Assembly (NCBI GenBank): GCA_900320405.1 | Contig: OOHM01000001.1 | Location: 203,191-267,190, forward strand | Source: an uncultured Pseudomonadota bacterium | GTDB taxonomy: Bacteria > Pseudomonadota > Alphaproteobacteria > Rs-D84 | Reading direction: 5' to 3' | DNA: 64,000 nucleotides | In this document: one piece after another, positions 7,082 through 64,000 of the stretch | How positions within the stretch are numbered: position 1 is the stretch's first letter | Layout of the letters: every line of letters begins with the position of its first letter | The notes under the pieces: generated by a model | Databases searched by the model: none | What the model was told of the DNA's origin: nothing | What the model saw: the letters and a program-made list of their open reading frames with translations, nothing else | Program-made: the position numbers and the translations under genes

Positions 7082-7288
7082 ATGGAACGCATAGAAATTG
7101 CATACGCACGAACATTTGGATGCGCATCGGGTGCGGTCGTATTGGAACACCTGCGGAAAATGACGATTGAACGTGCAATGGGGCCAAATGCAACGGACAA
7201 CGAACTGCGATGGTTGGAATCCCAACGCGCATTGGTCCATAAAATTGAACAATTGGTATTACGGGGGCGTGAAAATGCAAAAACATAA
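7082..7288 (+). CDS. small hypothetical phage protein
   Basis: 68-aa ORF following the portal gene. Confidence 0.3.
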   Translation: MERIEIAYARTFGCASGAVVLEHLRKMTIERAMGPNATDNELRWLESQRALVHKIEQLVLRGRENAKT

Positions 7289-7717: not shown

Positions 7718-8047
7718 GTGTTCTCCTTTATGCTGTTAACACAATTATGATTATATTCATATTTTCATTGATTGCAAGGTTAAAAACAAAATCCGTGGGG
7801 TGGTCGATTTAATCGTACCTTTTTGTCCAGTACTTTTTTTAGGAAATGTGATTCAGTAAAATCAATGACTTACAAAATCACAAGGGTGGTCAAAATAAAG
7901 GTACCTTTAATGCCATAATATAAGTGTATAAAACAAGCACAAAAAAGGAAGGGATCCCGGCCTAGACCACCCACAAAAAACTTCGTTTTTTGCGGGACCC
8001 GGACGCCGGGATGACGACAAGCAAAAAGGAAAAATAGGAGGAATATT

Positions 8048-8467
8048 ATGAAACAAGCATTATTCATTGGTGTAATTGCATCAATATTAACAATCAATTC
8101 AGTTTTGGCGGATACAACCGTCACATCCAAACAATATGTTGATACTGAGGTCGCAAAAAAGCAAAACAAAATCGAATCCGCAATGGTGAAAGACGTATAT
8201 ACCAGTATCGCATCATATGATGACGAAGGCGGGTTGGTTGCAAATAAATTTGGCATAATTACCGAGGAAAGTCTCTTTGAGGATGAGATACCATTAAACT
8301 TTTATCTTAGTGCAGATGATGAGATAACTGCTTTTGCCGACAAGATGGTTCCAACCGTCGCGGCGGTTGTTGGAGAACTGTGGAATTACCAGCAGAGACT
8401 TACCTGTGCCGGGTGGCCGGATGGTGTGTCACATACGGATGAAAATTGTTGGCTGTGGAGCAAATAG
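8048..8467 (+). CDS. secreted protein, paralog family A (signal peptide, YVDxExAxKQ N-terminal motif, C-terminal TCxxWxDxxxHTDxNCWLWS)
   Basis: Signal peptide MKQALFIGVIASILTINSVLA. Shares both terminal motifs with the protein at 29636..30346. Confidence 0.6.
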   Translation: MKQALFIGVIASILTINSVLADTTVTSKQYVDTEVAKKQNKIESAMVKDVYTSIASYDDEGGLVANKFGIITEESLFEDEIPLNFYLSADDEITAFADKMVPTVAAVVGELWNYQQRLTCAGWPDGVSHTDENCWLWSK

Positions 8468-9695: not shown

Positions 9696-10349
9696 TTATT
9701 CCCCACCAAACATTACATCTGATACCCGAAACACAAACACAACCGCCGGATCAATTCCCATCTTTAACGCCCGTTGCACCGCATCGATATCGCTTTTCAA
9801 CCGACCGATTGTGCCGGCATCTTCGATTTTTATGTACATTGTGCCACGCGTGACCGTCGGTGGTGTGCCCATATCATTTGGTTTATACCACGTTTTTAAT
9901 TCATAATCAACATGCCAATAATTACTGTTTTCGGGCTTAAAGATTTCGTTAAAAACCCGAACCGTTCGGCGCGCGCCATTTGACGCCAATTCGCGAATTT
10001 CGGGCACAACATTCTGTTCCCATGCGCGCGCAACATTCGCCGCAGACATAATTCTTATATTTGCGGTGTTTCCGCGTGTGCGTCGCGCAACATTTTCAAC
10101 ATCGGGAATTACATAGAAATATTCCATAACAAATTTTTGAATTAACCAATCCCGCATTCTGCGTTCACCAACCTCGGCAAGATTGCGTGGCATACCGGTT
10201 TGATTAACCGCGCTTAACCCCGTGCGAAAGAAATATGGTTCAACCGTCACTTTGTTGCCCGTATCATATATCGCACCTGCGATATAAATCATCGCGAATA
10301 CGGCGAATATGGTCACCAATCCGATAATATATCCAATCAGTCGTTTCAT
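9696..10349 (-). CDS. VirB8-like bitopic membrane protein (T4SS component family), paralog 2
   Basis: N-terminal TM helix followed by VEPYFFRTG (a VirB8 PYxVxVD-like motif). Shares the ARAWE motif with the adjacent paralog. Confidence 0.4.
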   Translation of the reverse strand: MKRLIGYIIGLVTIFAVFAMIYIAGAIYDTGNKVTVEPYFFRTGLSAVNQTGMPRNLAEVGERRMRDWLIQKFVMEYFYVIPDVENVARRTRGNTANIRIMSAANVARAWEQNVVPEIRELASNGARRTVRVFNEIFKPENSNYWHVDYELKTWYKPNDMGTPPTVTRGTMYIKIEDAGTIGRLKSDIDAVQRALKMGIDPAVVFVFRVSDVMFGGE

Positions 10350-10350
10350 A

Positions 10351-11085
10351 TTATTCCCTGTACGCGTTAAAACCCGTTATATAGTATCCCAATGTTTGCG
10401 GATACCGTGCGACATCATATGCAACCTTGACATATGCAATGATATCAAAATGGCCGTTTATATTGGAATAAACACGCGCCCGCGCCACCCACGTGCCACC
10501 ATTTGCGGTGATTTTTCCGCCACTGAAAACGGTAATTTTGTTTGGGTCAATATACCACCGTTCACCGGCCGATTCGTATGCACGGTATTGTGGCAACACA
10601 TCTGTCACAAAATTTTGATACATCCCTTCACCCGAAATGCAGTATATATCGCACCCATCAACATTCGCGAATGTATTTGGCACGTGTCGCGTGCATTCTG
10701 TTTCGCGATTGCACCGTTCCCACGCGCGTGCATTTTTTTGTGCATTGGCGGAAATTGTAAACCATTTTTCGGTGAAAATCCCGACCAATGCGCGTTGAAC
10801 AGATTGATAGTAAGGAATGTTTTTTTCGCCCAATGGCCGACCAACCAATTGCCATTCGCCGCGCGTACTGTCTACATATATCACAAACGGATTTACCGTC
10901 TGGTTCGTGCGCAACCACGGCAAGGCGACACAAAAACCGATGATAATCAAAAATGCCACCGCAATCCATATGCCCATTGTTCGGGAAACGGCGACCCGTT
11001 TTCCCGCCGGAAACGCGGAATTTTCAAAATCATCTGGGTAATCCAATGTTCTCTCCCCAAAATATGGTGTGCACAATCCGCGCAA
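10351..11085 (-). CDS. VirB8-like bitopic membrane protein (T4SS component family), paralog 1
   Basis: 37-aa cytoplasmic N-terminus, one TM helix, then LPWLRTNQTVNPFVIYVDSTRGEWQLV, matching the VirB8 LPxxxxVPYxVRVDxxTG pattern. The C-terminal LGYYITGFNAYRE resembles VirB8 NPLGFxVTSYR. Confidence 0.5.
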   Translation of the reverse strand: MRGLCTPYFGERTLDYPDDFENSAFPAGKRVAVSRTMGIWIAVAFLIIIGFCVALPWLRTNQTVNPFVIYVDSTRGEWQLVGRPLGEKNIPYYQSVQRALVGIFTEKWFTISANAQKNARAWERCNRETECTRHVPNTFANVDGCDIYCISGEGMYQNFVTDVLPQYRAYESAGERWYIDPNKITVFSGGKITANGGTWVARARVYSNINGHFDIIAYVKVAYDVARYPQTLGYYITGFNAYRE

Positions 11086-29403: not shown

Positions 29404-29612
29404 GAATCGGATGGGAATCCGTTTCGGGGCTGTAGCAGGCTCTTTGAAATACCGGTGCAGCGGCATCGTAATCCAATGGATTTTCATGTCTTTGCACCGC
29501 ATATTACCCCGCGTGGTCGGGGTGCCGATGGTTATATATCGAAGATTATCGGAGTCATTGTATTTCATGATTTGCTAACACCCCGACCGTCAATTCCCAT
29601 TGACGGTTTCTT
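29404..29612 (+). ncRNA. unclassified structured RNA element, copy A (5' GGGA-loop hairpin, conserved core cggggctgt..ggtgcag.ggcatcgtaatcc, two further hairpins, 3' terminator-like hairpin) located just upstream of 29636 gene
   Basis: About 70 percent identical to 61823..62051, with compensatory substitutions in three stems. Ends in accgtcaat/attgacggt followed by Us, 24 nt before the ATG. Confidence 0.6.
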
Positions 29613-29635
29613 ACTAGAGACAAAGAGGGAATATT

Positions 29636-30346
29636 ATGAGCAAAAAATTACTGTTCGCCACAATCGCATCGGTTTTGGCAACCGGCGCATTTGCCGACCC
29701 GAAAACCGTAACAACCCAGGATTATGTTGATAATGAATTGGCACAAAAACAAGCCATAATAACACCAACAAATTATTCTGCAACAATCGGCAATACGACA
29801 TACCCTGTCAAAGGATTAGTATTATACCCAGATGCAAATAATTCTGATGCGTCGGGTGCAATTGGCGCAAATAAGTTGTTTGGACGTGATATGGCTTTTG
29901 CATTGGCGGATTATGCTGATTCAAATCCTAATAACGACGATACAAATACTTATTGGTACAATGAATATTTATGGCCGTTCGCACAAGGAGAGACATGTAG
30001 TGGTAGACTTTGTGATGGTTTTACCCCTGGTTTTGCCAATTATGTTATTACGGGTGCCGCCTTGTTTGAAGGTTTAAATAGGCTTAGAATGTATGTTGAA
30101 GATATGATATATGCGGCAAAACCCACAGGTGATGCAAATACCGTTGCTTTGTATGGAAATGACGGTGAACTTAACACATCACGGGCATTATACGATGGTT
30201 CGGGAACGTATAATGCCGGAACCGATGCCGGAAAAATTGCCACCGCCGCCGCGGTTGAAACCAAACAAAACAAAATGACCTGTACACGGTGGTTGGACAA
30301 TGCCGAACACACCGATGCAAACTGTTTGTTGTGGAGTATAAACTAA
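29636..30346 (+). CDS. secreted protein, paralog family A (236 aa)
   Basis: Signal peptide MSKKLLFATIASVLATGAFA, N-terminal YVDNELAQKQ and C-terminal TCTRWLDNAEHTDANCLLWS, shared with the 8048..8467 protein. Confidence 0.6.
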   Translation: MSKKLLFATIASVLATGAFADPKTVTTQDYVDNELAQKQAIITPTNYSATIGNTTYPVKGLVLYPDANNSDASGAIGANKLFGRDMAFALADYADSNPNNDDTNTYWYNEYLWPFAQGETCSGRLCDGFTPGFANYVITGAALFEGLNRLRMYVEDMIYAAKPTGDANTVALYGNDGELNTSRALYDGSGTYNAGTDAGKIATAAAVETKQNKMTCTRWLDNAEHTDANCLLWSIN

Positions 30347-61509: not shown

Positions 61510-61713
61510 ATGAAAGGATTGACAGATTACGTTCTTGCACCATTAACATTTATTGGCGCAATCAATTGGGGATTGGTCGGCATATTCGGCTTTGATTTGG
61601 TCGCATGGCTGTTTGGTCCCGCCACGATGGTATCTAATATCGTTTATGCAATCATCGGTGTTGCCGCGGTTGTATGGTTGATATTGATGTTCATTGAAAG
61701 ACCGACGCGTTAA
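61510..61713 (+). CDS. DUF378-family small membrane protein
   Basis: 67 aa with two TM helices. LTFIGAINWGLVGIF motif. Confidence 0.6.
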   Translation: MKGLTDYVLAPLTFIGAINWGLVGIFGFDLVAWLFGPATMVSNIVYAIIGVAAVVWLILMFIERPTR

Positions 61714-61757
61714 AGTTCGGGAATCAATGGAAAAAGATTTTTTGCGACCGTTATTTT

Positions 61758-61788
61758 CCGCCGGTTCGCCGGCGGGTTATTTTTTTGT
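61758..61788 (+). terminator. rho-independent terminator
   Basis: ccgccgg-ttcg-ccggcgg then gttattttttt. Confidence 0.6.
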
Positions 61789-61822
61789 TGAATTGTTGTT
61801 CATATTTGATAAAAATAATTCT

Positions 61823-62051
61823 GAATTCAATGGGAATTGAATTCGGGGCTGTGAGAGGCCTTTACAAACCCGGTGCAGGGCATCGTAATCCATCAAGATT
61901 CTTCGTATGTTTTGCATCGCGATAATTCCCCCGACATATTGTCGTCGGGGTGCCGGTGGTTATACAACAGGTTTATCCGAAAACCACCGGAATCACAGGT
62001 TTGTATGATTTCTCAACACCCCGACCGTCAATTTCTGTTGGCGGTTTTTTT
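61823..62051 (+). ncRNA. unclassified structured RNA element, copy B (same family as 29404..29612), free-standing between convergent genes
   Basis: Perfect 9-bp stem gaattcaat/attgaattc with GGGA loop. Conserved core cggggctgtgagaggcc..cccggtgcagggcatcgtaatcc. Stems ccccgac/gtcgggg and ccggtggtt/aaccaccgg. 3' hairpin plus U7. Confidence 0.6.
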
Positions 62052-62110
62052 ATGGTCGATGGTATCCCCATAAATCTCCACCGACCACCTTTTTTTGTTA
62101 TGATTAATTT

Positions 62111-64000
<1,890 letters not shown>

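Follow-up and report, generated by a model that had tools for sequence, protein, structure and literature searches.

A covarying RNA family with a conserved alternative fold, linked to variable secreted-protein genes in uncultured gut Alphaproteobacteria

We describe a family of structured RNAs that is represented twice in a 64,000-nt stretch of contig OOHM01000001.1 (assembly GCA_900320405.1, positions 203,191 to 267,190 of the forward strand) from an uncultured alphaproteobacterium. This whole stretch is referred to as the window and the two elements as copy A and copy B. The family is genuine, is absent from Rfam 15 and exhibits unusually clear covariation. In addition to the covarying structure (fold 1), a second, mutually exclusive fold is conserved (fold 2) that reaches into the base of an intrinsic terminator. 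In the reading that we favor, and to which we give about an even chance, the RNA is a default-off terminator/antiterminator leader in which fold 2, resembling the sRNA-Xcc1 family (RF02221), would constitute the 'on' state selected by a putative effector.

Results and discussion

Covariation identifies a structured RNA family

Copies A and B were aligned by blastn with 72% identity over 249 columns (E 1e-25) and were placed on the window by covariance model R1 (Table 1). An earlier note on this DNA, made from the sequence alone, had pointed to a pair of non-coding stretches of about 70% identity, and both the similarity and the coordinates agree with our placement. In the MAFFT alignment the mean column identity of the two copies is 81%. 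The 19-mer AACACCCCGACCGTCAATT, which precedes the terminal hairpin, has exactly two occurrences in the window versus 0.04 expected, and a model search of the window did not find a third copy. The predicted folds have a common multi-branched architecture, with fold energies of -87.9 kcal/mol for copy A (z -6.39 versus dinucleotide shuffles) and -95.3 kcal/mol for copy B (z -6.99).

Loci of relatives were fetched via homologues of the secreted protein encoded downstream of copy A and of the PBP1A gene beside copy B. The proteins encoded near the RNAs in the window have their best matches in metagenome-assembled genomes (MAGs) labelled Alphaproteobacteria. Nine further distinct homologous RNA sequences are available from related gut alphaproteobacterial MAGs, giving a total of 11 with copies A and B; identical RNAs were counted once (L213 and L214 with L212, L216-218 with L215). 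Orthologues of copy A reside in L210, L212, L221 and L215 at a locus with the order tRNA-Arg, RNA, secreted protein, thymidine kinase, while L222, L223, L219 and L078 carry the RNA at other loci and L237 carries the orthologue of copy B (L237B). L078 is from a red-deer gut MAG and was the sole true homologue among the 87 loci of a core-motif scan of genome contigs. The same scan of metagenome contigs gave two chance matches inside coding regions and no homologue, the core-motif matches in viral contigs contained no homologue, and blastn of the RNA against a phage collection gave no match. The core motif used for these contig scans was too strict, as several real members vary within it. A divergent leader subtype is present in L219 (9752-9950, + strand) upstream of another gene of the secreted-protein family (z -4.9). 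Because this subtype exists and is missed by model R1, the class must be broader than the 11 sequences analyzed.

Fold 1 starts with hairpin P1 at the 5' end. The long helix P2 (P2a-c, with P2a formed by GGGG/CCCC) then closes a four-way junction from which hairpins P3, P4 and P5 emanate, and a terminator hairpin with a U-run completes the structure. P5 occurs in short and long forms across the family; in copy B it bears an extra inner hairpin and an AUACAA...GAA motif that is common to sRNA-Xcc1. Pairs of fold 1 were counted on 10 sequences (MAFFT and RNAalifold) or on a model-based alignment, with 10-11 sequences overall. RNAalifold on the MAFFT alignment (n=10) gave 56 consensus pairs; in 24 of these, both sides had changed in a compensatory manner. 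In the model-based alignment, 97.1% of the cells over the 56 pairs are paired and 25 pairs show two-sided changes, including three of the seven pairs of P2b and all five of P2c. When strands were slid against their partners, pairing dropped to 38-51% and the number of covarying pairs to 4-9, and the covariation level of fold 1 was reached by none of 500 shuffles. The earlier note had ascribed the differences between copies A and B to selection on RNA structure rather than decay of a repeat and had proposed covariation among homologues as the check; the 24-25 compensatory pairs out of 56 in the alignment of homologues support this view.

In part, the details of that note need revision. The three stems which it regarded as compensatory are all real: cggat/atccg in copy A versus gaattcaat/attgaattc in copy B is P1, ccgatgg/attatcgg versus ccggtggtt/aaccaccgg is P5, and ccccg/cgggg versus ccccgac/gtcgggg is P4. 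However, P4 is merely longer in copy B and not compensated. The core that had been called nearly invariant is so only between copies A and B. Family-wide, its segment cggggctgt.gcagg..tttgaaa is the covarying 5' strand of the long helix P2, and only short pieces are invariant, e.g. UCGU.A in P3, CGGGG.G, UGA.U and GACCG.

Many G-U pairs are part of fold 1 (e.g. alignment columns 37-204, 65-93 and 218-241), and the model yields only some 15 bits for the reverse strand versus 170-230 bits for the forward strand, which indicates that the + strand RNA is the selected object. These findings bear on the idea that the element is a DNA-level repeat devoid of RNA function, such as a mobile promoter cassette, a miniature inverted-repeat transposable element (MITE) or a recombination site of variable surface-protein loci. 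The loci are indeed variable, copy B sits in a hotspot that differs between close relatives (see below) and palindromic MITE-like inserts are found nearby in relatives. Nevertheless, strand-specific pairing with many G-U pairs, 25 compensatory pairs and the lack of terminal inverted repeats and target duplications make this explanation highly improbable.

A second conserved fold overlaps the terminator base

In all members, the 3' arm of P4, when extended to GUCGGGGUG (29516-29524), is complementary to a segment further downstream which we term X (CACCCCGAC, 29579-29587). Segment X comprises the 3' strand of P2a plus GAC, the first three bases of the terminator stem. In fold 2, the 5' strand of P2 has an alternative in a local hairpin (29427-29442; two compensatory pairs, in L222 and L078), and a hairpin H is formed by GAUCA (AGUCA at 29553-29557 of copy A) and UGAUU (29568-29572), conserved segments nominally unpaired in fold 1; here 100% of the cells are paired and four pairs vary one-sidedly. 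Altogether, the 19 pairs of fold 2 are 95% paired as compared to 36-51% with slid partners, and three of them show two-sided changes. The closing stem between the P4 3' arm and X is 96% paired, with one compensatory change. In L219, the position that switches partners is changed in three strands, i.e. A to U in the P4 5' arm, U to A in the P4 3' arm and A to U in X. The divergent L219 subtype has the same topology, with CUCCAACC/GGUUGGAG as P4 and CCUCCAACC as X, which again overlaps the terminator base. The duplication of the P4 5' arm by X in two sequence-divergent subtypes is hard to explain except by strand exchange.

Each of the 11 full-length RNAs was more stable in fold 1 than in fold 2. 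When the comparison was made on prefixes that stop short of the terminator 3' arm, the advantage of fold 1 was 4-17 kcal/mol in nine of 11; the exceptions are copy A and L221, with about 3 kcal/mol toward fold 2 under column-based constraints. The greater stability of fold 1 in most members is consistent with a switch that is off by default.

The 3' domain resembles sRNA-Xcc1

Searched with Rfam 15 at gathering thresholds, the whole window yielded only five tRNAs. This comparison had likewise been suggested in the earlier note, and apart from the tRNAs no family reached its gathering score in the window. At E values up to 10, none of the riboswitch, T-box and leader families in Rfam 15 matched copies A and B or the L219 subtype, and apart from sRNA-Xcc1 only noise was obtained. 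sRNA-Xcc1 is a discrete 88-nt RNA of unexplained mechanism (PMC2996969) that occurs upstream of symE in Xanthomonas integron cassettes (bioRxiv 10.1101/2025.06.18.660453) and upstream of an ORF6N gene in APSE phages. The 3' half of our family, from the P4 3' arm to segment X, aligns in fold 2 end to end with the 87-position RF02221 model. In small, permissive searches, the scores were 38.3 bits for copy B, 43.5 for L237B, 38.0 for L219 and 32.9 for L222, none of which reaches the gathering score of 53. Copy A, in which the short P5 lacks the inner hairpin, did not match RF02221 at E up to 10. Reciprocally, a model of the family's 3' domains in fold 2 found the Xcc1-like element of phage Aaphi23 (30.9 bits, E 5e-6) and scored 14.3 bits with that of Stx phage P13374. 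Hence we conclude that the 3' domain of the family is a distant relative of sRNA-Xcc1, or shares a module with it, and is not a member by the Rfam criterion. The earlier statement that the RNA matched no known class thus stands insofar as no Rfam 15 family is hit at its gathering score, and has to be amended by the reciprocal sub-threshold match of 33-43.5 bits in members with extended P5.

In both phages (Aaphi23, L235 1340-1625; P13374, L236 1360-1610), we observed that the Xcc1-like element follows a short terminated RNA transcribed from a consensus promoter and lies about 40-45 nt before ant or an antitermination gene, with an ACCCU...AGGGU hairpin after the element. The upstream RNA contains a CGCCCGAC-like segment which could re-pair the Xcc1 closing stem.

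Promoter, terminator and downstream genes

Copy A is preceded by a TG-extended promoter located 6-9 nt before P1, with a predicted transcript start near 29403-29406, and a -10-like hexamer is aligned at the same distance from P1 in all homologues. The corresponding region of copy B was recognized by sequence reading and alignment with the other promoters and fails a strict consensus scan. At the other end, the terminator of copy B has textbook form, while the tail of the copy A terminator, TCTTACTA, is imperfect and below the criterion of the terminator scan. The earlier description of a terminator immediately upstream of a Shine-Dalgarno sequence is therefore correct in position, as the hairpin and U-run end at 29612/13 and the ATG is at 29636, with the restriction that the copy A tail is weaker than the scan criterion.

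In nine of the 11 loci, the U-run is followed on the same strand by a strong ribosome-binding site and an ATG, in most cases after about 20-25 nt, a distance that leaves no room for a second promoter. L215 (and the identical L216-218) has an extra GC-rich, palindromic, MITE-like insert of about 60 nt between terminator and ribosome-binding site (9926-9990). The coupling of RNA and gene spans at least five genomic neighborhoods, namely the tRNA-Arg/thymidine kinase locus, L222, L223, L219 and L078. Of the nine genes, eight encode members of a single variable family of signal-peptide proteins; the ninth, in L219, encodes a GT92 glycosyltransferase, and its lack of relation to the others argues for a portable cis module. 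The secreted proteins share a conserved N-terminus (TITTQDYVD) and a conserved Cys-loop C-terminus (CTRWLDNAEHTDANCLLW) and have a variable, mosaic middle. They received neither a Pfam nor a PHROGs assignment, and the AlphaFold model of the downstream protein (pLDDT, the predicted local distance difference test, of 47) was too poor for a structure search. The earlier note had also remarked that the element looks like a riboswitch or attenuator. The terminator before the ribosome-binding site at nine of 11 loci and the alternative pairing at the terminator base are in line with this, while copy B and L237B have no such gene and a riboswitch is still hypothetical.

Orphan copies are under selection for structure

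No same-strand open reading frame (ORF) follows copy B, nor is there one between L237B and its second terminator. In the window, this second terminator directly follows copy B, and it is conserved in L237 (~7125-7180, - strand) together with its C-rich loop UAUCCCCA, which resembles an anti-Shine-Dalgarno sequence; transcription past copy B would extend the RNA by no more than this hairpin. Beyond it, L237 has an unrelated gene for a Cys-rich protein that probably possesses its own promoter. The interval that separates the DUF378 gene from the convergent PBP1A gene (window 61713-62111) is a variable hotspot among the relatives L227, L230, L234 and L237; in close relatives it is either empty or occupied by a gene for a 605-aa or a 1066-aa protein, or by the RNA followed by genes for Cys-rich secreted proteins. 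None of the hotspot proteins has a Pfam domain, and no remnant of a deleted gene is recognizable after copy B. Copy B and L237B are 86.4% identical (95% for the PBP1A proteins of the window and L237). Of their 31 substitutions only three fall into the 112 paired columns versus 28 into the 134 unpaired ones (Fisher p = 1e-5), and two of the three keep the pair. This avoidance of paired positions rules out that copy B is a decaying remnant.

Under a different explanation, the element would be a constitutive structured 5' untranslated region that stabilizes the mRNA or modulates how abundant surface proteins are translated, with the terminal hairpin as a stabilizer or processing site. The downstream genes do encode secreted, probably abundant, surface proteins, the imperfect U-tract of copy A fails the terminator scan and a strong ribosome-binding site follows immediately. 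We nonetheless consider this distinctly unlikely, since the orphan copies have no mRNA at all, hairpin and U-run are conserved with a canonical terminator in copy B, and a conserved, mutually exclusive second fold would be unnecessary.

The orphans bear more directly on the proposal of a structured, stand-alone small RNA which is a larger relative of sRNA-Xcc1 and acts in trans on a protein or on RNAs. Expression of the downstream genes would then result from leaky read-through or a shared strong promoter, and the two folds would not be a switch. Every copy has its own promoter and terminator, copy B and L237B combine tandem terminators and the absence of an ORF with purifying selection on structure, and sRNA-Xcc1 itself is a discrete RNA. 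Moreover, the loop of P1 (AUGGGAAU, 29411-29418) is complementary to the terminator loop (AUUCCCAU) in copy A. The predicted duplex of -11.8 kcal/mol was equalled by one of 1000 loop shuffles, and pairings are also seen in L078 (GUGGAAUC/GUUUUCAC) and L219 (AAGAGA/UUUCUU). In divergent members the cognate loop pairs best or near-best, with 1 to 172 of 1000 loop shuffles as good as the real loop, depending on the sequence. The pairing loops comprise 4-8 nt, closing A-U pairs would have to open, and the divergent L219 subtype (9752-9950) lacks the complementarity, such that kissing of the two loops is suggestive only. Its covariation in L078 and L219 suggests that the terminated transcript is a folded functional unit.

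On the other hand, the tight coupling to a same-strand ribosome-binding site and ATG at nine of 11 loci, in several contexts and with two unrelated gene types, as well as the duplication of the P4 5' arm by X in both subtypes, are difficult to reconcile with a purely trans-acting RNA. Two candidate target pairings also gave no support: the terminator loop as an anti-Shine-Dalgarno on the ribosome-binding-site region was no better than shuffles or non-cognate pairs, and the conserved P3 segment CAUCGUAAUCC as a trans seed on the conserved QDYVD codons was not significant versus shuffles. We regard the stand-alone RNA as the main rival reading, possible but somewhat improbable. It does not exclude a leader function, since trans action is open to a terminated leader RNA as well.

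A model for conditional termination

In the terminator/antiterminator reading, the leader would be transcribed from its own sigma-70-type promoter and the downstream gene would be controlled by conditional intrinsic termination. In the ground state, fold 1, the 5' GGGG and its neighbors would pair with the 3' region as P2a-c and close the four-way junction of P3, P4 and P5. The complete terminator would form, its loop could kiss the P1 loop, RNA polymerase would stop and release an RNA of about 210-230 nt, and the gene would be off. In fold 2, the 5' strand would fold back on itself, GUCGGGGUG would pair with CACCCCGAC and thereby remove the bottom three base pairs of the terminator, and the GAUCA/UGAUU hairpin would form. 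The resulting domain would be sRNA-Xcc1-like, and the weakened terminator would be read through into the gene. As fold 2 is the less stable one on prefixes in nine of 11 sequences, it probably depends on kinetic control or on an effector, which might be a small molecule, a protein or an RNA. What the sequences show is the family with its promoter and terminator, the strong covariation of fold 1, the conserved pairings of fold 2 and the association with genes; interconversion of the folds, suppression of termination by fold 2 and the existence of an effector we infer.

Several observations weigh against this reading. Fold 2 takes only 3-4 bp of the terminator, and its covariation is thin because its helices are mostly invariant. 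Leaderless genes of the secreted-protein family exist (window 8048, L211 and L222 10001). A purely cis-regulatory role does not cover all members, because copy B and L237B have no gene and two terminators and are conserved for structure all the same; at least these two would appear to function without a cis target. Finally, the complementarity of the P1 and terminator loops implies that already the terminated RNA folds as a unit.

Features of the window and neighboring genes

The coordinates of the RNA elements and their parts are compiled in Table 1.

Table 1. Positions of the two RNA copies, their helices and signals, and the coupled gene in the window
Feature	Position	Strand	Basis or remark
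RNA copy A, full element	29403..29613	+	212.8 bits, model R1
Copy A promoter: -35 TTGCCC, 17-nt spacer, TG-extended -10 TAAAAT	29369..29397	+	consensus scan, 9/12 matches, TG before -10
P1, 5' hairpin	29404..29425	+	4/8 pairs with two-sided changes
P2 5' strands: P2a GGGG 29426-29429, P2b 29433-29439, P2c 29444-29448	29426..29448	+	model alignment
P3 hairpin, conserved internal segment CAUCGUAAUCC at 29464-29474	29453..29499	+	model alignment
P4 hairpin CCCCG...CGGGG	29507..29522	+	invariant
P5 hairpin, short form in copy A	29525..29552	+	7/9 pairs with two-sided changes
P2 3' strands: P2c 29563-29567, P2b 29571-29577	29553..29578	+	model alignment
Segment X, CACCCCGAC; pairs with P2a GGGG (fold 1) or P4 3' arm (fold 2)	29579..29587	+	model alignment
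Copy A intrinsic terminator: stem GACCGUCAAU/AUUGACGGUU, loop UCCC, U-rich tail	29585..29613	+	fold and conserved helix
Ribosome-binding site AAGAGGG (29623-29629) and gene for 236-aa signal-peptide protein, ATG 29636	29623..30346	+	sequence
RNA copy B, full element	61822..62051	+	220.7 bits; 55/56 consensus pairs intact
Copy B promoter-like region: TTGAAT, 16 nt, TG-extended TAAAAA	61788..61815	+	sequence reading, alignment with other promoters
Copy B 3' domain matching the whole sRNA-Xcc1 model	61944..62033	+	38.3 bits, E 1e-5 to 2e-5
Copy B terminator: 10-bp stem, U7	62023..62051	+	terminator scan; textbook form
Second terminator directly after copy B: GGUCGAUGG...CCACCGACC, U7, loop UAUCCCCA	62054..62096	+	sequence; conserved in L237

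Among the secreted-family genes, the one at 8048-8467 (+ strand) of the window encodes a short member of 139 aa without an RNA leader. The region upstream of it (7790-8040) contains inverted repeats of the GGTACCTTT type along with a palindromic cccggc...gccggg insert, as is also found upstream of the leaderless genes in L211 and L222; in L222, a GC-rich palindromic (MITE-like) insert lies at 9770-9975. The L211 protein (10001-10732) and the protein encoded at 29636-30346 of the window are 85% identical in the middle but differ at both termini, a pattern suggestive of recombination between paralogues. Tandem 7-mers (TTAGTGG/CCACTAA) occur in intergenic regions of relatives, often just past secreted-family genes (L211 ~10733-10760 and ~10830-10870, L212 ~10915-10950, L219 9670-9700); none were found in the window. 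A 1431-aa protein devoid of Pfam domains is encoded at 18872-23167 (+ strand) and is conserved, in synteny, in all related loci (1411-1449 aa).

We considered and discarded two resemblances to known RNAs as well as a coding potential. A CUGAGAA segment is hammerhead-like, yet it covaries as one strand of a helix. Beside tRNA-Arg(ACG), a CGU resembles a T-box specifier but has no UGGN partner and no Rfam match, and the tRNA is adjacent at only one locus type. No conserved leader peptide was found among the members, whose ATG ORFs differ in frame, length and presence and are not preceded by a ribosome-binding site in any case.

Implications

The RNAs described here form a well-supported structured family, from a clade of uncultured gut Alphaproteobacteria that has been poorly studied. 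The family is not in Rfam 15 and may already be contained in the large unnamed microbiome catalogues of candidate structured RNAs, where no search was made. Its link to a hypervariable family of secreted or surface proteins may bear on host interaction. With both mutually exclusive folds conserved, it is a good candidate for an orphan riboswitch or a factor-dependent attenuator, and the structure-conserved orphan copies make the question of cis versus trans action open to direct experiment. The reciprocal similarity offers a concrete, testable idea of how sRNA-Xcc1, a mobile-element RNA that is still unexplained, may work. A bolder proposal, which we hold to be doubtful, is that the family represents a new class akin to riboswitches: its leader would be bistable, with the sRNA-Xcc1-type fold as the antiterminated 'on' state, and a putative effector would choose the fold to control variable surface-protein genes. 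If so, the widespread Xcc1-type RNAs before toxin and antirepressor genes on phages and integrons would themselves work in cis as switch modules and not as ordinary trans-acting small RNAs, and the orphan copies would be effector-responsive RNAs acting in trans.

Comparison with known RNAs

The family shares with sRNA-Xcc1 a 9-bp GC-rich closing stem, an AUACAA.A ... GAA hairpin that encloses an inner stem-loop, and another small hairpin. Xcc1-type elements, too, are located directly upstream of same-strand genes (symE; ant in Aaphi23). In contrast to sRNA-Xcc1, the RNAs described here are 210-230 nt long and possess a 5' domain of about 115 nt (P1, the 5' strands of P2, P3 and the P4 5' arm) which re-pairs the Xcc1-like part into a more stable, strongly covarying fold. 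They end in an intrinsic terminator, their promoter lies about 115 nt upstream of the Xcc1-like part, and they are chromosomal beside housekeeping genes and not on integrons, phages or plasmids.

Purine riboswitch aptamers are three-way-junction RNAs with a loop-loop (kissing) contact and are mentioned here by way of analogy only. Both RNAs have two hairpins with complementary loops flanking a closing helix, and in our family these loops covary in divergent members. Here, however, one kissing partner is the terminator hairpin and the support for the contact is statistical only.

Terminator/antiterminator riboswitches and attenuators are a general class with which the family can be compared. 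Like these, the family is a covarying 5' leader with its own promoter, has an intrinsic terminator right before the ribosome-binding site and a conserved alternative pairing that could compete for the base of the terminator, and recurs before functionally related genes. Unlike in these systems, the putative antiterminator overlaps the terminator by only 3-4 nt, selected orphan copies exist and there is no conserved leader peptide. Judged by its sequence features, we predict that the family is a variant within a known kind, the terminator-based riboregulators, with a distant link to sRNA-Xcc1.

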